DNA of 64,000 nucleotides from Achromobacter sp. (GCF_032102605.1 NZ_DAMDGT010000002.1:55113-119112); one strand, 5' to 3'; shown: positions 7,093 to 55,707, counted from the stretch's first letter. A program made the numbers and translations. Notes: generated by a model from the sequence alone, not told the origin.

Positions 7093-10254
<3,162 letters not shown>

Positions 10255-43520: not shown

Positions 43521-44009
43521 TCACCGCGCGGGAAGATCAGAAGAGGCGATACCTCGTCCTTTTAGCGGTGCCAACGCATCCGCCAGCTTCCGATCGAACC
43601 GTTCGGCGCCAAGGCGGAGCTCGCAGAGGACCTCTTCCAGTAGCAGGCCAAACTCGTCGACCTCCGGATGCGGTTCCTGCCAAGGCTCTTCATGGTCGTC
43701 GTGGTCGATATCACCACATCCCAACGGGCAGCAGTTCGGATCAATTCCGTGTGTGCAATAGCCACACTCAGCCAGTTCAATTTGAACCTGTGCCAACTCC
43801 CCCGCCGCGAGGTAGCCGAAAGGCACGGCAACAGAAATCGCGAGCGACTTCATCTCGCCAGGAAGCCCAACAATGTGCTCTTCGACGGCGGCACTGAATC
43901 GTTGCTGGTACAGGTCATAGCTCAGTCCGCATCCGGCATGGGCCATCGCCTGGAGTGATTCACAACGCGCCTCCCATGTCGCGACGTCGAAGTTGACCAT
44001 GTCCGTCAT
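43521..44009 (-). CDS. Hypothetical acidic protein with a Cys cluster (CGYCTHGIDPNCCPLGC)
   Basis: 162 aa; start overlaps the helicase stop by 4 nt. Possible zinc-binding cluster. Confidence 0.45.
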   Translation of the reverse strand: MTDMVNFDVATWEARCESLQAMAHAGCGLSYDLYQQRFSAAVEEHIVGLPGEMKSLAISVAVPFGYLAAGELAQVQIELAECGYCTHGIDPNCCPLGCGDIDHDDHEEPWQEPHPEVDEFGLLLEEVLCELRLGAERFDRKLADALAPLKGRGIASSDLPAR

Positions 44010-45976
44010 TGCGCCCCCTGACCGGCAATTCGACTTTCCGCCTCGAAAGCAAGGGCCCGCAGAGCGGCATGCTCCAGGTCTGAGTACGTGAGCTCTATCC
44101 CCATAAAGAGCGATCGAGTCGCGCCGCTCTGCGCCCCCAGGTCATGAAATACATCCCCAGGCCCGCGCATCGCAGCATCGCGAACCGCTAGACTAAACCC
44201 GTCGGCGCACTCTTCAAGCAGGCGGAGCCGGTCAAGGCTCGCCTGTTTAATCTCGCCGTCCAGAAGCATGAAAAAATAGCCCTTTCCGCCCGTGCGAGCG
44301 AGACGCCCCCGCAACTGGTGCAGCTGTGTGACGCCGAATCGTTCGGGATGAACCACGACCATACAAACCAGCGACGGCAGCGTCACCCCGACTTCAATTA
44401 GCGTTGTACTGACGAGCAGATCGATCTCTTTCTCTCTCATCCGTTTGAGAACCTCATCTTTCTCCTCGTCCTTCATTCTCCCGTGCACGAATCCAACGCG
44501 GTCGCTGAAATGTGCGGGAAACCGACGAAACGCCGAGGTGCCGCTTGCCTGGTCGTCGTCTCCGTCCACCAATGGGTAGATCAACGCAGCCTGGCCGCCT
44601 TTCGCAATCAAGTCCTTCACAAACGCTGATAGCTGTTGGGCCTTTTCCCTATCCACCAATCGCGTCCGGACAAGCTTGGTGACTGGAACCTCTCGCAACT
44701 CCGACACGTCCATCCCGGCCAACCCTACCAGCGCCACGGTGCGAGGAATCGCCGTCGCAGTGACTTCCAGTAGATTCGTGGACGGACCGACCAAGGCTGC
44801 ACGCTGAGCCGTCGAGAACTTCTGCTGTTCGTCAACAATCACGAGGTCGAACGCTCTGCCGCCCTTTTTTGCCCACGAGATGATCGCGGTCGTCCCAATC
44901 ACCAACGCGTCATCTACGTCCTTGGGCTTGGCGCCAGCGATCATGCACACCGCCTTAATGTGCGGAAAGAATGCAACGCACTCGGAGTGGACCTGGGCGG
45001 CCAAAGGGCGACTCGGACACACTATTGCCACGCGGGCGCCAACCTCGCTGGCAGCTGCGGCGATAACCAGATACACCGCAGTCTTGCCTGTCCCAACATC
45101 ACCCGACAGCAGCCGTGCCATGGCCAGGTTCGAACTCAAATCGTCCATGATGTGCTTTACCGCCCGCCGCTGGTCCTTCGTCATAGGATAGGGCACCATC
45201 TTTATCAACTCGGCCAGTCTTTCCACAGTCAAGACAATTCGAGATTTCGGCTGATTGGTGCGTTCACGGTTCGCGCCAACCTTCCAGGCAATCGCGGCGA
45301 GCGATAAGGCACGGGCTGCGGCCAACGATTGGGTGGCGTCGGCGAGGGAATCGGGCCAGTGTAGTTGCCTGATCAGACTCTCCGCAGGCATGTCAATCGT
45401 CGCCCGTATGGCGTCGGCATCCATGCCTGTTCGCTGCGACAGAAGGGCGACCGCCCCCGGGATCCCGTCTGGGCCAACGCTATGCACCGCTAACCGGATC
45501 TTGTCACCTCCTAACACCCCCTGCTTTCCTCGATAGAACGGCCGTACGCCCCCTCTTGCGTCCGCAGCGATAAAAGACGGATTGACCATGGAAGCGCGCC
45601 CGTGCGACGACCTCAGTACACCTGCAACGAAGATATCGTCGCCCGGCATCACTGTCCGCCAATTCGCCATATCACCGTAGCAGTGGAAATCTGCCTCGCT
45701 ACCGGCCGAGTCCGAAGCCCTTACGAACACTCGCCCAGCTTCCATGCTTTCCCGGTCGACCGGCCGCCCGCTCTGGGTCATGAAGACAATGGAAATGCAG
45801 GCCACCAAGACATATGACTCGCTGCCTTGGTTTGCCACGGGCAAGATGGTGGATGGCTGCCTGTAGTCGTGATATCCCGCCGGCGCGATGAGCAATGCTG
45901 CTTCTCGGGAATCGACCCCGGCTTTGGCCAAAGACTTCCAGAGAGCGTCAATGTGATTAACCGCAGTCGCGTTCAT
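44006..45976 (-). CDS. RecG-like SF2 DNA helicase
   Basis: N-terminal OB/wedge-like region, then motif I GDVGTGKT, II VDEQQKF, III VTATAIPRT, followed by HGRMKDEEK, LVSTTLIEVGVTLPS and GVTQLHQLRGRLARTG. These parallel RecG motifs. Confidence 0.8.
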   Translation of the reverse strand: MNATAVNHIDALWKSLAKAGVDSREAALLIAPAGYHDYRQPSTILPVANQGSESYVLVACISIVFMTQSGRPVDRESMEAGRVFVRASDSAGSEADFHCYGDMANWRTVMPGDDIFVAGVLRSSHGRASMVNPSFIAADARGGVRPFYRGKQGVLGGDKIRLAVHSVGPDGIPGAVALLSQRTGMDADAIRATIDMPAESLIRQLHWPDSLADATQSLAAARALSLAAIAWKVGANRERTNQPKSRIVLTVERLAELIKMVPYPMTKDQRRAVKHIMDDLSSNLAMARLLSGDVGTGKTAVYLVIAAAASEVGARVAIVCPSRPLAAQVHSECVAFFPHIKAVCMIAGAKPKDVDDALVIGTTAIISWAKKGGRAFDLVIVDEQQKFSTAQRAALVGPSTNLLEVTATAIPRTVALVGLAGMDVSELREVPVTKLVRTRLVDREKAQQLSAFVKDLIAKGGQAALIYPLVDGDDDQASGTSAFRRFPAHFSDRVGFVHGRMKDEEKDEVLKRMREKEIDLLVSTTLIEVGVTLPSLVCMVVVHPERFGVTQLHQLRGRLARTGGKGYFFMLLDGEIKQASLDRLRLLEECADGFSLAVRDAAMRGPGDVFHDLGAQSGATRSLFMGIELTYSDLEHAALRALAFEAESRIAGQGAQ

Positions 45977-47886
45977 TCGGCCTCCTGTGTGGTTGAGCGT
46001 TTGCCCGCTTCGACGGCCGCCTTTTTGCGATGCTGCTGGGCTTCCAGGGCCTGCATCACGACTCGGCTCATCTCCGCCGACGCTGTCGGATCAAGCGCGG
46101 CCAGGCCAAGCGGGCGACGCCCAGGCTTAGATGCGCCACCTTTCTTGGGCTTCCCTGACGCCTCTTCTTCGGCGACAAACTGGAGCAACGCCTCTTCCTC
46201 CGCCTCCTCTTCGAGGTCGGCCATGGCATCGGCGAGCGCTCGCTGCGCGTCGCGATCACTTGGCCGCGCGTTCCCGGATTCGGACTCCTGCGGCGGTGTC
46301 AATTGGTCAGGTGCGCCATCCTCTGCCGGGCAGTCAGCGCTCAGGCCAGTCGGAGCCCCGAACGCAGCGGCGTTCTTCTCCTGGATCCAGGATTCCGATG
46401 GCGGCACAGGCAGGTGGTAGAACGACGCGGCCTTTATCACAGCTGTGGCGACGTGGTCGGCTAAGTAGGTCAATCGTCCCAGCTCGGCCATCGTCGGTGG
46501 CGGCGAATGCATGACAATGGCCGGCGCGAAATCTGTAATGTGCTTTGTTGTCTTCCCGTGGTAGAGCCCAACGCTATACATTGGGAGGTGCGGCGAGAAG
46601 GACGCGCTCCGATGCTCGGCATACAAAAGGCCACGGTCATAGAGGGCGGCTAGGATCGCGCACGTGATTTTGTACCGATCAGGCCCGCTAGAGATGGTCT
46701 CACCAAGCTTTTTGAGAACCAGATTCCGCAAGTCATGTTCGCGGATGAAGATCTTTCCCTCGTGTTTCTGGCCAATCCGTACGGATGCATCCTTCTCCGG
46801 GTCTCCCGTGCCGTTGATTCGACCTGGCTCGCAAAGAACCGAGACTAGCGCCTCCCATACTTGGTCCGCGTCATAATCGTCGACCTCCTGATCTTGGCTT
46901 GCGCTGACGCCGGTCTCTTCGACGCCCACGGCCCGATCGGCAGCTACCAGAATTCCCATTAGCGCGGCAGCACGGTCATCGACCGGAAGGCCGTACTTGT
47001 CGATAGGAAAGTCACTCGGATGATGGTAGTGAGCCAGCGCAACGCTCAGCGCTTCGCGATCGTGGTCCGGCAGTTCCCAGTACTCCGGCATCCTGGATAG
47101 TAAGCGCGGTGCAAGCACGTCATGCACCACGCCTTTGTCATCATCATGGCTGGTGTTTCCAGCTTCCTCCGCGTTGGCCACGATATCGCCTTTCGCAGAG
47201 ACTCGATACACGAGAAGCTTGCCGATGTCATGCGCCATTCCTATAACAGCAATGAGCGGGTCTTGCGGCAAGAGCTTGTAGCCGGGGTCTTTCTTATCCA
47301 AGACTTTGAACGTCTTACGACGACGCGCTTTTACGTACACGCCGGAATACTCGAAGCCTGGCGCGAGTTCCAACGCCTTGACGGCTACTGCCGCGCAATG
47401 CTCGTGCAGCAGCCGGGATGCATGTCCGCCACGTCGATGCGATGCTGGGTAATGCTTGTGAGCGCAGTATGTGTCCCATACCGCCAAAAGGAGGTTATGG
47501 TGTGCCGGCCAGGTGGCTTTCGCCTGCGCCATCCACATATCCAGCGCCGGTGGCAGCGCTAGCCGTTCTTTTTGCGGGTCTCGGATTCTCGGTAGGGCAT
47601 TGAAAGAGGTTGGGACTTCACCGATCGAGCACTCAATTCCCAATAGTGCCGTGGGCTGGATACGAGACCGGGCCAGCTCCCGCCGGACGAGAATTACGGC
47701 CGCGACAGTCGCCGACGACGCGAGAATGACGAGCAGCGAAGTGCGCCATTCAAAATCCTCTGTGGCGAGGTAGGAAAGCACTCCCAGGGGGTTGTCTCCG
47801 AACTCGACGATGGTGAGCAGGACCCACCAGAACAGCGTTACGCGCGCAATGCGTAAAGGGAGTTTGTTATTTGCGCCAAGGGCCAT
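45973..47886 (-). CDS. traI: HD-domain protein, probable MOBH-family (PFGI-1/GGI class) TraI relaxase
   Basis: Hydrophobic N-terminus, then HKHYPASHRRGGHASRLLHEHCAAVAVKALEL and IGMAHDIGKLLVY (HD domain pattern as in ICE TraI proteins, from memory), with an acidic/Ala-rich tail. Confidence 0.55.
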   Translation of the reverse strand: MALGANNKLPLRIARVTLFWWVLLTIVEFGDNPLGVLSYLATEDFEWRTSLLVILASSATVAAVILVRRELARSRIQPTALLGIECSIGEVPTSFNALPRIRDPQKERLALPPALDMWMAQAKATWPAHHNLLLAVWDTYCAHKHYPASHRRGGHASRLLHEHCAAVAVKALELAPGFEYSGVYVKARRRKTFKVLDKKDPGYKLLPQDPLIAVIGMAHDIGKLLVYRVSAKGDIVANAEEAGNTSHDDDKGVVHDVLAPRLLSRMPEYWELPDHDREALSVALAHYHHPSDFPIDKYGLPVDDRAAALMGILVAADRAVGVEETGVSASQDQEVDDYDADQVWEALVSVLCEPGRINGTGDPEKDASVRIGQKHEGKIFIREHDLRNLVLKKLGETISSGPDRYKITCAILAALYDRGLLYAEHRSASFSPHLPMYSVGLYHGKTTKHITDFAPAIVMHSPPPTMAELGRLTYLADHVATAVIKAASFYHLPVPPSESWIQEKNAAAFGAPTGLSADCPAEDGAPDQLTPPQESESGNARPSDRDAQRALADAMADLEEEAEEEALLQFVAEEEASGKPKKGGASKPGRRPLGLAALDPTASAEMSRVVMQALEAQQHRKKAAVEAGKRSTTQEAE

Positions 47887-48836: not shown

Positions 48837-49940
48837 TTGACCCTGGCGATGTTAACATTTAGAGGTGTCAACCATCTGATTTATATAAATCTTATGATAA
48901 AAAATCGATCAGATCTCAGCCCGATTGGTCGCGGGGAAGACCTCCGGATGCTCTGCCGCCTGTACGTCCAACATCGGGGAACCGAGCAAGAAAAGCAGCT
49001 TTCTGACCAAATCGCGCGGCTCGTTCTGACCAACCCAGACATCCGGGCGATCGCCTGGAGCGCCCTCCGGCGCTACGGGCATCTGGGAAGCGATCGACTG
49101 GAAGAGCTGTTGAGCGAACTCGCGGCGGTCGTCGTCATCCGGCTTCTACCGCGAATGCGGGATCCCGATGCCATATGGGGCGCGCTCAAGGGCTGCGCAC
49201 GCAACCTCGTCCTTGACTACACGCGCAATCCGTACGATTCCGAGCTGCCCTTCACGGCGGACCTGGACGACCCCAAGGTCGGGGCCGCGCTTGTACCTGT
49301 AGAATCGGATACTCTCCGCCTCGATACGACCATGATGGCCAAGAAAGCCCACGCACAACTCGCCGCAGCCCTGGCCGCGCCCCCAGCGCGCGAAGATTGG
49401 ATCCCGGTGCCGATTCCCCCGTTGGACGGCCAACTACCCGGGGCGCCCATCCCCCTGGCCGAGCTATCCTCGCTGCCGGCGAAGCCGACACGCGCCCCCC
49501 GGACAGCGAAAATCGCATCCGCAGGGCAGCTTGAGCTGCGCGAGATCAAGTCCAAGCTCCAGATGACAATTCCCGAACTGGCCTCGGCGCTGGGGAGCAA
49601 TCCGAACACGCTCAGCGCCTACATGAAGGGCATCGCCCCCCTACCGGATGAAGTGCTGGAACGGGCGCGCTTGGTGTTCCGCGCAAAGTTCGACCAAGTC
49701 AAGCGGCAAAACGACCGGTGGAAGCAAATCGCGGGCAAGAGCGGCAGCATGGCGAAGATGATCGCCGAATGGAAGGAGCGCGCAGGCGTCCGGACGAACC
49801 GTGAGCTCGCCCAGATACTCGACGTGTCTGAAACCACCATCACGCGCTGGAGCCAAGACCTCAACATTCCCCCGCCCCACCGTATGCGCAAGTACGACGG
49901 GCTTGTCGACGCCGCCGGCGGCAGCGCCTCGAAGACCTAG
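48837..49940 (+). CDS. Putative transcription regulator (sigma-70 region-2-like N-terminus, two C-terminal HTH segments)
   Basis: AVVVIRLLPRMRDPDAIWGALKGCARNLVLDYTRN, then MTIPELASALGSNPNTLSAYMKG and RTNRELAQILDVSETTITRWSQ. Start uncertain (MIKNRS at 48897 is possible). Confidence 0.5.
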   Translation: MTLAMLTFRGVNHLIYINLMIKNRSDLSPIGRGEDLRMLCRLYVQHRGTEQEKQLSDQIARLVLTNPDIRAIAWSALRRYGHLGSDRLEELLSELAAVVVIRLLPRMRDPDAIWGALKGCARNLVLDYTRNPYDSELPFTADLDDPKVGAALVPVESDTLRLDTTMMAKKAHAQLAAALAAPPAREDWIPVPIPPLDGQLPGAPIPLAELSSLPAKPTRAPRTAKIASAGQLELREIKSKLQMTIPELASALGSNPNTLSAYMKGIAPLPDEVLERARLVFRAKFDQVKRQNDRWKQIAGKSGSMAKMIAEWKERAGVRTNRELAQILDVSETTITRWSQDLNIPPPHRMRKYDGLVDAAGGSASKT

Positions 49941-50689
49941 GGGTGCGGCCCGCCCCCAGACAGGCCGCTGCGCTCCAACACCCCCTCCATCTCGACCAGC
50001 CGTCCCAACTCTTGAAGCTTGGATGTCGGGGCGAACACAACGCTTGACCCCCCCCCGATTGCCCCTCCGGTTGCAGAGATCGAGAGGAGACCGGTGCGGA
50101 GCAAAGCCCCTCTGACCGCTTCAAAGTCGCCCCATCGAGCGGTGTCGGGCCCATAAATGCCTTGATACACCGCCGATGCCAACTCCACCAGTCGGGCCGT
50201 GCGCAAGTCGGCAGGCGCATGGCGCAGATATCCGGCCAAAACGACAATCTCGTCTGAAGTCAATCCGGCCAGGATATCTGCCCAACGGTAGAACTCGTCG
50301 GCATATACCGCGTCGTGTGCAAGTTGGCCAGCGAGAATGGCCGCCAGCATGCGCAGATTGATTCGTCCGACCCCCTCACGCACTGCCCGCGCGTAGCGCA
50401 CCGTGATTGCCGCGAACTCTTCCAGCTCAACATTTTCCGGCGTCGCCCGCCCCGCCCTTAGCTCCCCAAGCATGATTTCCCGGGCTTCCTGCGCCTTGCG
50501 GGCGTAGTGAGTCTGAAGCGCGGCCTTTGCCGTGGCGCTAAGGACCGCCGCCCCCGGAATACATAGCGCCGCGAGCGTATCCGATATCGCTGCGCCAAGG
50601 TAGTCAGCGACATTGCTCTCGACAGCCGGTCGTACGGGTGCGGCAGCGCGGGTAGCCGCGCCGCCGTGGGACGTTTTAGGTATTGCCAC
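49937..50689 (-). CDS. Hypothetical protein, partner of the KAP NTPase
   Basis: 250-aa ORF 36 nt downstream of the KAP gene on the same strand. Helical, Ala-rich, no recognised motif. Confidence 0.5.
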   Translation of the reverse strand: MAIPKTSHGGAATRAAAPVRPAVESNVADYLGAAISDTLAALCIPGAAVLSATAKAALQTHYARKAQEAREIMLGELRAGRATPENVELEEFAAITVRYARAVREGVGRINLRMLAAILAGQLAHDAVYADEFYRWADILAGLTSDEIVVLAGYLRHAPADLRTARLVELASAVYQGIYGPDTARWGDFEAVRGALLRTGLLSISATGGAIGGGSSVVFAPTSKLQELGRLVEMEGVLERSGLSGGGPHP

Positions 50690-50725
50690 AACTCGCTCCT
50701 TCGGACTTGAGATCGTTGCGCCGCT

Positions 50726-52975
50726 CTACGCGTCTGCCCCTGGAGCAGACTTGGCTGCTTGCTCAAGTACAGCTTTGTGAATGGATGCAAATTGGTGCGC
50801 GACCTTTCTCGCCGAACTACCGTCAGAGTGATACTCCGGCGTGTCTAGCTCTGCACCGTAACGCTCCCGCAGGTTCTCCATGACGAAGTCGGGTGAGATA
50901 CAGGATGCGATGGAATCATAGTTACCTCGTTGCAAAAATGACCGGACTGGCATTCCACTTGCCATCTCCCACCCTTCCCCGACATAGGTGTCGAGGAACA
51001 CATCTATGCTAACTGGGTCGTGCTCGAAGATCCCTCGTAGGTACGCCTCGACCTCATCTTTACCGCGCCCCTTCTGCCAATCCCAATAGAGCCCTGGGGC
51101 GTCCATTGGCGTCGTTAGGAAAAGCGGACCTTCAGCGCTTGCGTCTCGAACTCTGCCGGCGAATAACTCGTAGATGGCATCGTTTGCGTCGTCTGGCAAG
51201 ACGCGATGCGCCTCCGGCTTGTCCGGATAGTGAGTGAGCCATCTAACGCACTCGCTGCCCAAAGCCAACGGCTGCGCAGCTTCGACGACCGCCTTCACCG
51301 CATCGAGCCGGTGCGCCATCGCGATCTGCCTCATTAGTTGAGATACGAGGATAGCCGCTTGCAGGAAGGTGCCCCCCATGACATAGGGCCCACGCTCTCG
51401 CGGAAGCATCTCGCCGTTCCGAACTATCGCGAGCGCCAAAGGAAGTGCTGCGATTTCGTCGACGTCCTCGGCCCGGTCCCGAAGCCTCTCAATCAATCGC
51501 GGCATCGCCCGATCGGAGTATTTGCTCAAGATCGCACGTTGCGCCTCTGGATCACCCGCCGCTAACGAAGCGATTAGATCGGCAATTCCGCTATCGGCAA
51601 TGTCGCCTTCCGGTACCCCGTAAACAAAGTAGCGTTTGAAATAGCGGCTCGAACACAAGCGTTGCTCTGCCGTCCACTGCTTATCCCATTCCGGGCCGTA
51701 CGTCATTGTGTCGACACGCGGGAAAAGCGGTACCAACAGCCGTCGCCTAACAATGTCGCGCTCCTTTGCCGTAGAGAGTGGCATAGCAGCTGCCAGGACC
51801 TCGTCTAAGGGCGACGGCTGGGCTTGCAGTGGGTTACGCACACCGTCGCGGGGCTCGCCTTGTAGGAACATATCTGGCTCGTCCCGTATTGCAATGTATA
51901 GCCGGGGATACAGTAGGCGTAGTCCTTCAATCAACATGAACTCGGCAATGTTCACCTCGCCCTTTACAAGGGGCAGCGAAAACATGAGAGCGTTGATGTA
52001 CTGTTTTGCAAGCCGCGGCGTTTCTAGTTTCGGCTCCAGACCGTCCACAAACGGGCGCATGAACTTGTCAACTTGCGCCTGGTCGATTGATATGTCGGCT
52101 TGCTGTAAAGCGCGGTCCACCCCTTCGAGGGTTATCTTTCGAAGACTTAGGCGGTCGGCCGGCGGCAAGTGCAGAGGTACTTGAATGATCTTCTCAAGGA
52201 ATGCACGACCTGCCTCGGCGCCCCCCGCTCCATACCGTTCACCGAGCGCAGCGGAAACCACCTCGTCATCAAACGCCAGCACGTAACATGTGTACTTAAA
52301 GCTAGCCGACAACTTGACCAGCTTGAAGATCGCGTGTGTCTCGTTCCTGTCCAGGCGATCGATGTCATCAATGAGAATGACGAGCCTTTTGCCGCTTTGG
52401 AGTAGCAACTCATCGATCTCGTCCTTTACCTCATCAAGGCCATCCTTCGATAAGGCCTCTCCGAGATTCTTAGCAGCTTCTCCAGGGTTGATCTCCACGC
52501 CCGGCACCGCTACCGATACCACCGACAGAAGTCCGCCGTACTTTCCCAATAGCGCAGCCGCCCGCTTTCTGAATGCGGGCTCCTTGCCCAGCCCTTTGGC
52601 CAGGGTCGCGAAGAAACCACGCAGGAGCGCATCCTCGGACGGAAAGTGCCATGGGTTGAATCGTACTGCTATGGAGTTCTCATGAAGACCAAGCGACTCC
52701 TCCATCATTTTGAGGACCGATGTTTTACCGTCTCCCCATGGCCCGTAGAGACCTATAACTACGCTTGAGGGATCTTCCCGTTTCGCTATGGTGTCTGCGA
52801 TTCTGGCAGCGAATGTCGCGCGCCCAAACCGATCCTGCGTCTTCGTCGCTATGGGATCGTCGGACACATATAGACTTCCGGTTTGCTCCTCAACCGTTCG
52901 CTGCGTCGAAGTAGCGTCGTTCCGACTGGGCGGGGACGCTGCTTTTCGTCTAAAACAGTTTTTAAACCAACCCAT
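50726..52975 (-). CDS. KAP-family P-loop NTPase
   Basis: Walker A IGLYGPWGDGKTSVL and Walker B/KAP signature LVILIDDIDRLD, with a long helical C-terminal region. 749 aa; no obvious TM insert. Confidence 0.8.
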   Translation of the reverse strand: MGWFKNCFRRKAASPPSRNDATSTQRTVEEQTGSLYVSDDPIATKTQDRFGRATFAARIADTIAKREDPSSVVIGLYGPWGDGKTSVLKMMEESLGLHENSIAVRFNPWHFPSEDALLRGFFATLAKGLGKEPAFRKRAAALLGKYGGLLSVVSVAVPGVEINPGEAAKNLGEALSKDGLDEVKDEIDELLLQSGKRLVILIDDIDRLDRNETHAIFKLVKLSASFKYTCYVLAFDDEVVSAALGERYGAGGAEAGRAFLEKIIQVPLHLPPADRLSLRKITLEGVDRALQQADISIDQAQVDKFMRPFVDGLEPKLETPRLAKQYINALMFSLPLVKGEVNIAEFMLIEGLRLLYPRLYIAIRDEPDMFLQGEPRDGVRNPLQAQPSPLDEVLAAAMPLSTAKERDIVRRRLLVPLFPRVDTMTYGPEWDKQWTAEQRLCSSRYFKRYFVYGVPEGDIADSGIADLIASLAAGDPEAQRAILSKYSDRAMPRLIERLRDRAEDVDEIAALPLALAIVRNGEMLPRERGPYVMGGTFLQAAILVSQLMRQIAMAHRLDAVKAVVEAAQPLALGSECVRWLTHYPDKPEAHRVLPDDANDAIYELFAGRVRDASAEGPLFLTTPMDAPGLYWDWQKGRGKDEVEAYLRGIFEHDPVSIDVFLDTYVGEGWEMASGMPVRSFLQRGNYDSIASCISPDFVMENLRERYGAELDTPEYHSDGSSARKVAHQFASIHKAVLEQAAKSAPGADA

Positions 52976-53045
52976 AGCGAGCTCCAGTTGCCCGACGCTC
53001 TCCGGCCGCGGGCATGTTTAGTCGACGTCGACGTTCGGCACCGCG

Positions 53046-53639
53046 CTAAGCTGCGCAAGCATGCGGATCGAGCCTCGTGCCACTTATCGCGGGCAAAGAT
53101 TCACCCAGGGCCGAAGCAACATCCACATACAGCTGAACGATGGCATGGTGAAAGGCTGTACCGCGCTCCACCTTGCCCTCCATCACTTCCACATCGAGCT
53201 CTGCAAACGGGGTGTCTTTGTTACTCACAACGAACGCGCGGATCCTCTTCTCCATGTCTCCCGCGTCGACCTTCCCCCGGCTTCCAACGACCTCCAGCAG
53301 ACGAGATAGCTGACGGGGCGCCTCCACACCATAGGTATGCGCGATCTGGTTGCGGCAATCGTTCAGGGTGCGCAGCGCCGACCAAGGATATGCATTCCGT
53401 CGGAAACAGAATTGTTTGACTAGCATGTCAAGCTTGTCGCTAAAACCCTTGCGATAGAGCTTCCTTTGGTGCACCTTCCTCAACAGCGCGTGCGCCATCA
53501 GACTTTCAATGAAAAGGTGCGCCAGTAGAATTGGGCCGACCGAAGACGGCCGCTCCATTAGGAACAAGTCTCTCGCCCGCCGAACATTAAGGGCGGAGAG
53601 TTCCCTCGGGCTGCGTTGTACGGATTCTGGTTTTTGCAT
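53046..53639 (-). CDS. HEPN-like protein (Rx4H motif RNQIAH)
   Basis: 197 aa, all-helical appearance. N-terminal helix LFIESLMAHAL, and LNDCRNQIAH encoded at 53337..53354. Confidence 0.55.
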   Translation of the reverse strand: MQKPESVQRSPRELSALNVRRARDLFLMERPSSVGPILLAHLFIESLMAHALLRKVHQRKLYRKGFSDKLDMLVKQFCFRRNAYPWSALRTLNDCRNQIAHTYGVEAPRQLSRLLEVVGSRGKVDAGDMEKRIRAFVVSNKDTPFAELDVEVMEGKVERGTAFHHAIVQLYVDVASALGESLPAISGTRLDPHACAA

Positions 53640-53844
53640 GTCGAACTCTGATATATCGGGATACTAGAATACAAAAAATATCAAGTTGATACAATTCATC
53701 ACTGCCCGCTTGGGCATTGGTCTTGTCTTCCGTAGGGACTACGAACTCTCCGCCTTGCAAGTCAATCACTCTTAACAAGACCGTAACAATGCTGGGGCTC
53801 TTCGTTTAAACGCCCGGTTCAGCAGCTACCCATAACCGCTCCGT

Positions 53845-54384
53845 TTAGTCCGGGTCCGGGAACTCCAGGTGCATCCCAGTGACAAGGCATTTCACATAGT
53901 CAACCTCATCTTGCAGGGCCTTCGGGAAGTTTGCGGCGAACCTCATGAGTTCTGCGGAAACAGCATCTGCCTCGTCTGCAAATTTCTGAACATCCTTCAG
54001 CTCGTATGCCGTATCTTTCTGCTGGTGAAGAATCGTCGAGCTAACGTAGGCATCCGGTCCGTGTCCAAATGCTTGTATAAAAAGGGGATTGTGCGCAATT
54101 GCGTTTCGATTGCTCATAACGGGCCAGTACTTTCGCTTCTGCTCTTTCAGGCCCTTAGAAAGAGTGTCAGATAGGTGGTTTTTTGATATCTCAGATATTC
54201 GCCCAACGCGTAGAGAAAACTCCTCCTTGCGCCAAATCTCGATGTCTTCGGGTGCCAAAACTGCCAAAAGCTCGTTAACAGACCTCTCGATGCTTGCGGC
54301 TGCCAGGATCAGGCGCCCCACGGGATTTATCCACTGGTCTTGTTCGGACTTCGCCAAGGCCATGAACTCTTCGGACGACATCAT
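53845..54384 (-). CDS. HEPN-like protein (Rx4H motif RNAIAH), visibly lower-GC gene
   Basis: 179 aa. N-terminal helix AAASIERSVNELL, and MSNRNAIAH encoded at 54091..54108. AAGGA RBS before the ATG. Confidence 0.55.
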   Translation of the reverse strand: MMSSEEFMALAKSEQDQWINPVGRLILAAASIERSVNELLAVLAPEDIEIWRKEEFSLRVGRISEISKNHLSDTLSKGLKEQKRKYWPVMSNRNAIAHNPLFIQAFGHGPDAYVSSTILHQQKDTAYELKDVQKFADEADAVSAELMRFAANFPKALQDEVDYVKCLVTGMHLEFPDPD

Positions 54385-54646
54385 GTTTTCTATCCTTTTT
54401 ATGGGTAATTGCGCTCGAGATGGACGACATCAGCGCGCCGTCATGGGACACGAGATGATCGGGGATGATAACCGGATGCCCACCCGCAAAAGTGAAGTCC
54501 ACGTGAGGGAAAATTCCACACTTATGCGCGCCGTAAATTGTTGCCACCTGGAGGATCTTGGCTGGCCCGGTTTCTGTGTCAAACCAGACTCCTTATAGAA
54601 TCCACCCCGTGTCACAAGACATTTAGAGAGAGGTAGGGGAATTTTC

Positions 54647-55129
54647 ATGCGCAAGATCGACATCAACAGTCGAGAGTATCAATGCTGGCACGAGTTAGGG
54701 CACGCCGTGGTCTGCATACACCTGGGAGGAACCGTTGATCTGGTCGAATTTCTGAACGACCAGCCCCACGCCCAGGGCATGGCACGCGCCAGGTGCAATA
54801 CGAACGAAGAAATTCGTTCTCACGTCCTCTGTGGCGGTTTCGCCGCGGAATTATTCTTGCTTCGAAATCAATTTTTGCCGTCGATTTCGGAGAAGGAAAT
54901 CGCTCAGATCATATTTAAGAACGCGACCAAAGACCGCGAAATGTACTGGCGCCGGGAACTTCAGCCTGATGAACAATTCACCCGCGAGGAAGATGAAATA
55001 TTTATGAATCACGCCACAGCAGTGATGCGGATAGTGGGGACGTACAAGAGCGCGATTCAAACTCTCGTGCCGGGATTGTTGGAAGCAGGAAGACTCGATG
55101 GAAAGTGCATCCAAGATGCGATGGGCTGA
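54647..55129 (+). CDS. Stand-alone FtsH/M41-like zinc metallopeptidase domain protein
   Basis: CWHELGHAVVCIHLGG (HExxH encoded at 54689..54703) followed by LCGGFAAELFLL, paralleling the M41 HEAGHA...GGRAAEE pattern. 160 aa, no ATPase domain. Confidence 0.5.
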   Translation: MRKIDINSREYQCWHELGHAVVCIHLGGTVDLVEFLNDQPHAQGMARARCNTNEEIRSHVLCGGFAAELFLLRNQFLPSISEKEIAQIIFKNATKDREMYWRRELQPDEQFTREEDEIFMNHATAVMRIVGTYKSAIQTLVPGLLEAGRLDGKCIQDAMG

Positions 55130-55170
55130 ATGCCCAAGTCATTTCGCGACGAGCCGGCCCTCCACGTAGG

Positions 55171-55209
55171 GAAGAAAAAAAGCCCGCCCTTCCAAAAGAA
55201 AGGCGGGCT
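55171..55209 (-). terminator. Rho-independent terminator after ssb
   Basis: AGCCCGCC / GGCGGGCT stem with an A-rich run on the plus strand (T run on minus). Confidence 0.7.
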
Positions 55210-55239
55210 TTAACCAACAAAAAGTTGGCTTAGTAGGTT

Positions 55240-55707
55240 TTAGAACGGAATGTCATCATCCATATCTGCGAGCGAGGAGCCGGCGGCCTGTTGCTGCGTG
55301 GCGGGGCGCGCATTGCGTTGTTGCGCCGGTGCGGGGCTGGGTTGCTCGTCGCCCCCGCTTTCGCCACCCCCACGTCCGCCCAGCATCTGCATCTGGTCTC
55401 CGACGACCTCAGTGCTGTACCTGTCCGCCCCCGTGTCCTTGTCCTGCCATTTCCGCGTCTTGAGTCGGCCCTCAATGTAGACCTGACGGCCCTTCTTGAG
55501 ATACTCGCCTGCGACCTCAGCGAGGCGGTTGTACAGAACGACTCGATGCCACTCCGTCTCCTCGCGGCGTTCCCCGGAGGACTTGTCTTTCCACTGCGAC
55601 GTCGTGGCGATAGACAGATTGCAGATTGCGGCGCCGTCCGGCGAGTAGCGCACCTCGGGATCTCGTCCCAAGTTCCCAACCAAAATCACTTTGTTGACCG
55701 ATGCCAT
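55240..55707 (-). CDS. ssb: Single-stranded DNA-binding protein
   Basis: [21 protein letters not shown]...[32 protein letters not shown], a Gly/Gln-rich linker, and the C-terminal DDDIPF tip. Confidence 0.95.

Follow-up and report, generated by a model that had tools for sequence, protein, structure and literature searches.

PifA of the Escherichia coli F plasmid, a single-protein abortive-infection system that excludes phage T7, is the founding bacterial member of the KAP P-loop NTPases and has no transmembrane (TM) helices (PMC13001434); it senses the T7 products gp1.2 and gp10, which leads to membrane depolarisation and leakage of nucleotides (PMC8594841, PMC13001434). Antiphage activity has been validated by experiment for KAP NTPases that act as single genes and vary in their C-terminal regions (PMC13552941), and PifA calls are reported inside hotspots such as the GI-Hotspots of PAPI-1/PAGI-1 (PMC12629846). 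PifA-like proteins, KAP defences and defence hotspots in integrative and conjugative elements (ICEs) are all already established (PMC13552941, PMC12629846). Here we compare with these systems a locus found in a 64,000-nucleotide (nt) stretch of Achromobacter sp. DNA (the whole stretch is called the window), in which a conjugative element carries a gene for a 749-amino-acid (aa) KAP NTPase followed by a gene for an unnamed 250-aa protein. In our judgement the KAP protein is probably, though with appreciable room for doubt, a phage-exclusion factor of the PifA type, which works as a single protein, depends on NTP and is carried as ICE hotspot cargo, and the 250-aa gene is not its dedicated partner. 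Coordinates of the features are collected in Table 1, counted from the first letter of the window, and compared loci are designated by L and a number.

What a first-pass annotation had said of the two genes themselves holds: they are co-directional and 36 nt apart, and the first encodes a protein with the Walker A motif GPWGDGKTS (residues 78-86) and a KAP-type Walker B, LVILIDDIDRLD (residues 198-209). The protein matches Pfam KAP_NTPase (PF07693) over residues 52-332 with an E-value of 2.8e-48. The absence of a TM insertion was also called essentially correctly, as a hydropathy scan (Kyte-Doolittle, KD19) gave a single borderline window scoring 1.64 at residues 139-157, which coincides with the usual KAP TM insertion site, and no other; the maximum for F PifA is 1.27, i.e. 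no TM window either. The view that the architecture could not be placed in any named system must, by contrast, be given up, because the protein matches the PADLOC PifA model PDLC02361 (E 9.6e-74) in a single stretch that joins residues 38-658 of the protein to positions 7-660 of the 720 in the profile. This match is near full length, and the window KAP can therefore be assigned to a single-gene abortive-infection family that already has a name; by sequence it is a remote relative within the PifA family, whose KAP P-loop NTPases have no TM helices, remote because it scores 247 bits on the same model that gives 963 bits for F PifA. The PADLOC scores for other models are far weaker (QatA 3e-21, PDC-S20 4e-11), and the NCBIfam QatA model reaches E 2e-23 with 82.9 bits against a cut-off of 600. 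QatA (Qat/QatABCD) and PDC-S20 do share the KAP NTPase domain with the window protein, but its matches to them cover parts of that domain only, and PADLOC found no QatB, QatC or QatD among the neighbours of the KAP gene. Sequence and profile searches of the PDB with KAP gave no match. The subfamily is a large one, with 1130 homologs at E <= 1e-20.

The likeness to F PifA extends to overall design, both proteins being about 740-750 aa long, with an N-terminal KAP domain, no TM helices and a long unannotated C-terminal region, and both being encoded on a conjugative element. The surroundings differ. In the F plasmid (NC_002483), pifC lies directly upstream of pifA (741 aa) in one operon and the next gene after pifA does not share its orientation, whereas in the window the upstream gene encodes a 197-aa protein with an RNxIAH motif rather than the PifC repressor, the other small flanking genes are different as well, and the host is a betaproteobacterium. 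The second group of relatives, the single-gene KAPs described from Enterococcus (EF_KAP) and from metagenomes, resemble the window protein in combining a KAP domain with an uncharacterised C-terminal region and in acting as stand-alone defences in mobile islands (PMC13552941). EF_KAP is set apart by its description, being modelled with TM helices and reportedly non-abortive, whereas the window KAP has no convincing TM helix.

The window is recognisable as part of a conjugative element by its genes for TraN, TraU, a Toprim protein, a DEAD-type helicase, SSB, a ParB-like protein, an SprT-like protein and an integrase. The KAP gene occupies a slot between the stop of ssb and the convergent stop of a helix-turn-helix (HTH) regulator gene, and a look-up of the 656-aa helicase of the element, which is 100% conserved, retrieved six variants of this slot (L159-L168). 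The arrangement of the window recurs in L166, and L161 has a shorter version of KAP. In a third variant (L164 and others) the slot holds a 477-aa protein in which an HNH-type nuclease is fused to a PtuA-like ATPase, and in a fourth (L160, L163) a 479-aa allele of this HNH-ATPase that is 58% identical to it. A profile hidden Markov model (HMM) of the 250-aa family found an intact member in all four, of 253 aa in the third and 251 aa in the fourth. The fifth variant (L162) carries a type I cyclic-oligonucleotide-based antiphage signalling system (CBASS; 4TM effector 1e-104, cyclase 5e-181) and has lost the 250-aa gene except for its last ~33 nt; the sixth (L159) carries Drt1a (1417 bits) beside an insertion sequence and keeps only decayed N- and C-terminal remnants of the 250-aa gene, detected by the same profile. 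Because elements with an identical helicase hold KAP, HNH-ATPase, Drt1a or CBASS at the same place, the ssb-to-HTH slot is a true defence hotspot with interchangeable cargo, and KAP is one of several such defence cargos of an Achromobacter/Bordetella-type conjugative element. The earlier suspicion that the pair sits in a cargo position of a defence kind is thereby borne out, and the interval does vary among related ICEs. The slot resembles the GI-Hotspots of PAPI-1/PAGI-1 in being a discrete site between conserved backbone genes that takes up alternative defence systems, but of the boundary pairs DUF3275/DUF2859, TraG/helicase, TraU/TraC and traD/RAQPRD described for such hotspots none matches the ssb/Xre-type HTH pair by name (PMC12629846).

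As to the HNH-ATPase, the 477-aa gene was considered as a truncated KAP and rejected, there being no similarity between the two. Proteins of 477-545 aa with an N-terminal HNH-type domain (CBASS Cap5 / PDC-M68A-like) adjoin 250-aa family genes at L011:5547-6980, L160:3846-5285 and L003:3873-5510, the PtuA-like P-loop ATPase being fused in the ICE alleles; the PADLOC models that were run called no complete named system for them.

Do KAP and the 250-aa gene make up one system? The question was approached from the side of KAP by running the profile HMM of the 250-aa family on six-frame open reading frames (ORFs) in about 5 kb around each homolog. A family member was absent from all six KAP contexts outside the ICE (0/6), namely those of homologs with 67% identity in a metagenome, 64% in Pseudomonas protegens (beside a 1004-aa reverse transcriptase), 62% in Morganella (beside an integrase), 49% in Burkholderia pseudomallei and 45% on a Xanthomonas plasmid, and of PifA itself (23%) on the F plasmid; these islands are rich in integrases or defence genes. 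The sole KAP homolog examined that does have an adjacent 250-aa family gene is 80% identical and sits in the same ICE slot. From the side of the partner, a degenerate DNA pattern for R[YF]x[RK]xxxEGx[AG]RxNLR[LM][LM]A was scanned through three collections, which yielded 51 genome, 3 viral and 73 metagenome loci and, together with L001, L003, L011 and L016, a set of 131, every one of which was confirmed as a true family member. Homologs of the 250-aa protein are far from always adjoining a KAP NTPase, a point on which the first-pass annotation had wanted a check: among the 104 loci whose flanks are long enough to judge, only 4 have KAP immediately upstream. The spacing is the same in all four, and L043 (Bordetella bronchiseptica), which was looked at more closely, has the ICE arrangement.

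The two genes also diverge discordantly. Between L006 and L069 the KAP proteins are 79% identical and the 250-aa proteins 97%, whereas between the window and L006 the order is reversed, with 91% for KAP and 77% for the 250-aa protein, and dS amounts to 0.73 in the 250-aa gene versus 0.28 in KAP. These discordant identity matrices and unequal dS values imply that KAP and the 250-aa gene have been reshuffled by recombination and are not co-evolving. Among sister elements generally, backbone proteins are 96-100% identical and KAP 91%, but the 250-aa protein only 77% and 64%, and the DNA homology to the HNH-ATPase variant breaks within the 250-aa gene. Positive selection on the gene was considered and rejected, as the ratio of nonsynonymous to synonymous substitutions (dN/dS) is ~0.20 against the L006 homolog; combined with the high dS, this value points to allele exchange rather than to fast evolution. 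The 250-aa gene is thus exchanged by recombination independently of KAP and is no KAP-specific subunit, and a conserved two-gene KAP system, with synteny lacking outside the ICE lineage, is not supported by these sequence comparisons. Two of the outcomes that the first-pass annotation had named as refuting such a system, a match to an already named defence system and a lack of synteny in other genomes, are what the comparisons gave.

How would a single KAP protein act here? If it follows F PifA and those KAP defences that have been validated, which are the source of what may be said about trigger, effector activity and abortive mode, a phage product would be recognised by the C-terminal region (roughly residues 360-749) or by the NTPase module, NTP binding or hydrolysis would switch KAP to its active state, and the active protein would stop the infection, which in PifA happens by membrane depolarisation and nucleotide leakage. 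Several points weigh against so close a parallel. The window KAP and F PifA are only 23% identical by BLASTP, in an alignment confined to the N-terminal half (residues 47-360, E 8e-24), and the C-terminal likeness comes from the PADLOC profile alone, so that the window KAP may have another trigger and another effector than F PifA. The validated Enterococcus KAP is reportedly not an abortive-infection protein (PMC13552941), and the abortive mode is therefore not a given for the window KAP. PifC, the operon partner in F, is absent from the window locus, where a 367-aa HTH protein, tried as a PifC homolog, shows no similarity to F PifC. The Pif system of DefenseFinder presumably also requires PifC. 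Finally, in the ICE lineage KAP always lies between the 197-aa RNxIAH gene upstream and the 250-aa gene downstream, and the constancy of these small flanking genes, their tight spacing, a Shine-Dalgarno (SD) sequence and the lack of a terminator mean that the three may form a lineage-specific module.

The 250-aa gene itself was described at first pass as coding for a protein with no recognisable motif, and so it remains: neither the window protein nor 102 diverse family members gave a credible Pfam or PADLOC match, NCBIfam is also blank for the window protein, no WYL or other Pfam domain was found in the family, and the source names of its members all read 'hypothetical protein'. A likeness to Abi-alpha/DUF4393, seen by eye, was dropped, since neither 14 close nor 102 diverse members produced a Pfam match even at E 0.1-10. 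The ORF is a real gene, as is clear from its dN/dS and its hundreds of homologs. A word-indexed search had returned 15 close clusters only; an exhaustive profile search raised this to 765 representative clusters (50% identity) at E <= 1e-3, 601 of them at E <= 1e-10, with members mostly of 205-240 aa (typically ~220 aa). In phages the family appears to be missing, with 0 tblastn matches in 50,697 phage records and 3 megaplasmid matches only.

An AlphaFold2 (AF2) model of the 250-aa protein built on 14 close homologs was poor (predicted local distance difference test, pLDDT, 45), whereas one built on the 102-sequence alignment reached a pLDDT of 89.7 and a predicted TM-score (pTM) of 0.79. It predicts five N-terminal helices, then three helices (145-157, 167-179 and 183-199), a beta-hairpin (202-207/216-221) and two short helices, which would make the C-terminal half winged-helix (WH)-like. 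Of the two kinds of search proposed at first pass, PADLOC was decisive for KAP and empty for its neighbour, and Foldseek with the 250-aa model gave no global match in the PDB and viral libraries, only weak local ones over ~100 residues to PadR, MarR, RTP and the winged-helix domain of ORC/Cdc6 (E 0.06-1, TMt ~0.5); a PDB profile search with the family found nothing under E 0.27, and a search of the PDB by sequence was empty as well. Conservation peaks in the central helices (R98, E105, G106, N111-R113, F133, E147) and in the LLRTG motif (R198, G200). Family members are mildly acidic, with a net negative charge on the WH-like half, which gives no indication of a classical DNA-binding repressor. 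No catalytic motif or TM segment was found in the protein. All in all the family is sizeable, well folded and nameless, an uncharacterised and modest side lead.

Within the window element the 250-aa gene is nevertheless very probably co-transcribed with KAP, because its GTG is preceded by a ribosome-binding site and the 36-nt spacer contains no terminator-like site. It is here that the first rival explanation takes hold, which takes the 250-aa family for an accessory module that stays constant (an adaptor, a sensor or an antitoxin-like regulator), a widely used helical/winged-helix immune accessory that would be transcribed together with whichever toxic effector adjoins it and serve that effector as control or sensor. 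Apart from that spacer, the reading draws on the retention of the gene behind two unrelated P-loop proteins in the ICE and on the persistence of the pairing with the HNH-ATPase even though the ATPase alleles are only 58% identical. It draws also on the company the family keeps, as many of its tight co-directional neighbours are small proteins of nuclease or RNase type, frequently with overlapping start and stop codons. The neighbours include Abi_C (L064, with a 4-nt overlap; in L021 a homolog lies 5 nt downstream, i.e. in swapped order), Hypoth_Ymh (L035, L133), HEPN_AbiU2 and HSDR_N_2 (both L061), Cas3_HD (L060), HNH (L063), DUF123 (L047), T5orf172 (L029), PLD (L016) and HNH-ATPase (L011-14, L116, L160). 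If the reading were true, HEPN RNases, HNH, PLD, HD and GIY-YIG nucleases and PifA-like or PtuA-like NTPases would be its effectors, and the KAP pair would be one face of an uncatalogued polymorphic two-gene defence.

Yet in 19 of the 72 family loci flanked on both sides no co-directional gene lies close by. Tight neighbours, where they exist, are for the most part singletons and include housekeeping genes (such as MetH, a TPP enzyme and acetyl-CoA synthetase). It is moreover hard to see one conserved fold directly controlling so many unrelated effector folds, the KAP and 250-aa phylogenies are discordant, and no 250-aa protein goes with the KAP homologs, with F PifA or with the KAP defences that have been validated (PMC13552941). 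The enrichment in nucleases may reflect no more than a location in defence islands. The nuclease/HEPN pattern can thus be read either as simple residence in defence islands or as a constant module with swappable effectors, and at the window locus the former is favoured because some neighbours are housekeeping genes, some copies are solitary and the 250-aa gene does not co-diverge with KAP. We accordingly hold the accessory module to be unlikely, if still the best placed of the alternatives. BrxR and CapW are small winged-HTH (wHTH) regulators associated with defence and found beside many defence systems; going by that description, the 250-aa family would resemble them in being small, in its predicted wHTH-like half and in lying beside varied defence genes, but differs in having no WYL domain, in usually lying downstream of its neighbour, in being acidic and in often being solitary.

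Some family members sit inside larger co-directional gene clusters. In L064, which with L056 comes from Hyphomicrobiales and Micavibrio metagenome-assembled genomes, the co-directional order is SNF2-type helicase, Abi_C, 250-aa family gene, N6/N4 DNA methylase and ResIII/endonuclease, with 4-nt overlaps at the Abi_C/250-aa and 250-aa/methylase junctions. The L056 cluster consists of an SNF2-type helicase, unannotated proteins of 163 and 317 aa and the 250-aa family gene, with a ResIII-like fragment further downstream, and in L083 and L129 a 1063-aa ResIII-like gene overlaps the start of the family gene.

In a second alternative the 250-aa gene acts by itself in defence or exclusion, has no functional relation to KAP and only happens to sit at the hotspot edge. 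The size of the family, the purifying selection on it and its often solitary occurrence would fit, as would the finding of a small serine recombinase, a marker of defence islands (PMC13552941), within 3.5 kb of the family gene in 16 of the 131 loci. Paralog pairs (in tandem at L001:6001-7436, convergent at L097:4230-6161 and L124:2112-4043) and frameshifted copies (L024, L050, L051, L113, L125, L147, L155) speak of the kind of turnover that is typical of defence genes, and within the ICE the alleles diverge much more deeply than the backbone. Against this, the protein shows no catalytic motif, TM segment or similarity to a defence model, a helical protein of 220 aa with a WH-like domain offers no obvious effector, and the evidence from location is circumstantial; we judge this explanation less likely still. 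That the protein is instead an ICE regulatory or maintenance factor of the backbone, for instance a winged-helix DNA-binding protein acting with the HTH regulator, is very improbable, for although its gene end is fixed by a 4-nt overlap with the regulator stop in 4 of the 6 slot variants and its C-terminal half is predicted to be winged-helix-like, the gene is decayed or deleted in the Drt1a and CBASS variants of an otherwise identical element, its product falls to 64-77% identity where backbone proteins keep 96-100%, most family members lie outside any ICE, and the acidic family with its net-negative WH-like half is unlike a DNA-binding repressor.

Table 1. Features of the KAP locus and of neighbouring parts of the window
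Feature	Position	Strand	Remarks
1049-aa ORF	7093-10242	(-)	left third of the window
656-aa helicase	44006-45976		used for the look-up of slot variants
637-aa protein	45973-47886	(-)	no Pfam or NCBIfam match
HTH (Xre-type) regulator, 367 aa	48837-49940	(+)	element backbone; Pfam HTH_31, HTH_3
250-aa gene	49937-50689	(-)	GTG start; large unnamed family; no Pfam, PADLOC or NCBIfam match
Variable cargo slot	49941-55239		edges: ssb stop and convergent HTH regulator stop
250-aa protein, C-terminal half	49970-50263	(-)	winged-helix-like (predicted)
250-aa protein, LLRTG	50090-50104	(-)	invariant
250-aa protein, ADEFxRWA	50261-50302	(-)	motif
250-aa protein, RYxRAxxEGxxRxNLRxLA	50339-50398	(-)	signature of the helical N-terminal half
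End of DNA homology to HNH-ATPase variant	~50425		within the 250-aa gene
AGGAG ribosome-binding site	50696-50700	(-)	6 nt ahead of the 250-aa GTG
KAP P-loop NTPase, 749 aa	50726-52975	(-)	PifA-like; ATG start; Pfam and PADLOC matches
KAP Walker B	52349-52384		
KAP borderline hydrophobic window	52505-52561		
KAP Walker A	52718-52744		
197-aa protein	53046-53639	(-)	70 nt upstream of KAP
197-aa protein, RNQIAH	53337-53354	(-)	Rx4H, HEPN-like
Stretch of ~944 bp missing from L006	53698-54641		
179-aa protein	53845-54384	(-)	no family match
179-aa protein, RNAIAH	54091-54108	(-)	
160-aa protein	54647-55129	(+)	first slot gene after ssb
160-aa protein, HELGH	54689-54703	(+)	HExxH, metalloprotease-like
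Terminator-like hairpin	55179-55211		strong; after ssb
ssb	55240-55707	(-)	backbone gene at the other slot edge; PF00436

The 197-aa gene accompanies KAP in every KAP-carrying ICE variant, and homologs upstream of KAP are 94% (L006), 84% (L161) and 58% (L069) identical, with RNxIAH kept in all. It was weighed as the true conserved partner of KAP and set aside, its conservation being limited to the ICE lineage; its only PADLOC match is a faint one to RTasHEPN (E 0.0099), which makes it at most a candidate HEPN protein. The 179-aa gene lies on the stretch that is missing from the sister element L006. The 160-aa protein has a weak match to Peptidase_M50B (E 0.0024, under the curated cut-off), is 88% identical to its L006 homolog and has an 80-aa truncated relative in L161. 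At the edge of the slot, the HTH regulator is convergent with the 250-aa gene, their stops overlapping by 4 nt, and is 96% identical across slot variants. Elsewhere in the element, the 637-aa protein, in what was called a relaxase region at first pass, has homologs (~40% identity) that are annotated as hypothetical and come mainly from conjugative plasmids in Pseudomonas, Cupriavidus and Burkholderia, and with its HD-like motifs it may be an unrecognised MobH-type relaxase. The GC content dips to ~0.51 around 15-20 kb and 54-55 kb of the window. Outside the ICE, in Pseudomonas protegens and relatives (L074-L077), the 64% KAP homolog lies 84 nt downstream of the 1004-aa RVT_1 gene, with an AAA_13 ATPase and an integrase fragment close by, and this may be a defence island with adjacent reverse transcriptase and KAP genes.

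What appeared to be a new two-gene KAP locus is clarified, on the reading of KAP as a single-protein exclusion factor, as probably a single-gene defence, distantly of the PifA type, that occupies an ICE hotspot. The ssb-to-HTH slot offers a clean natural case of the swapping of defence cargo on a near-identical backbone, with recombination breakpoints inside the 250-aa gene. The 250-aa family, apparently enriched in the vicinity of nucleases, HEPN proteins and small serine recombinases, would in turn be a reasonable candidate for a defence or defence-accessory gene.

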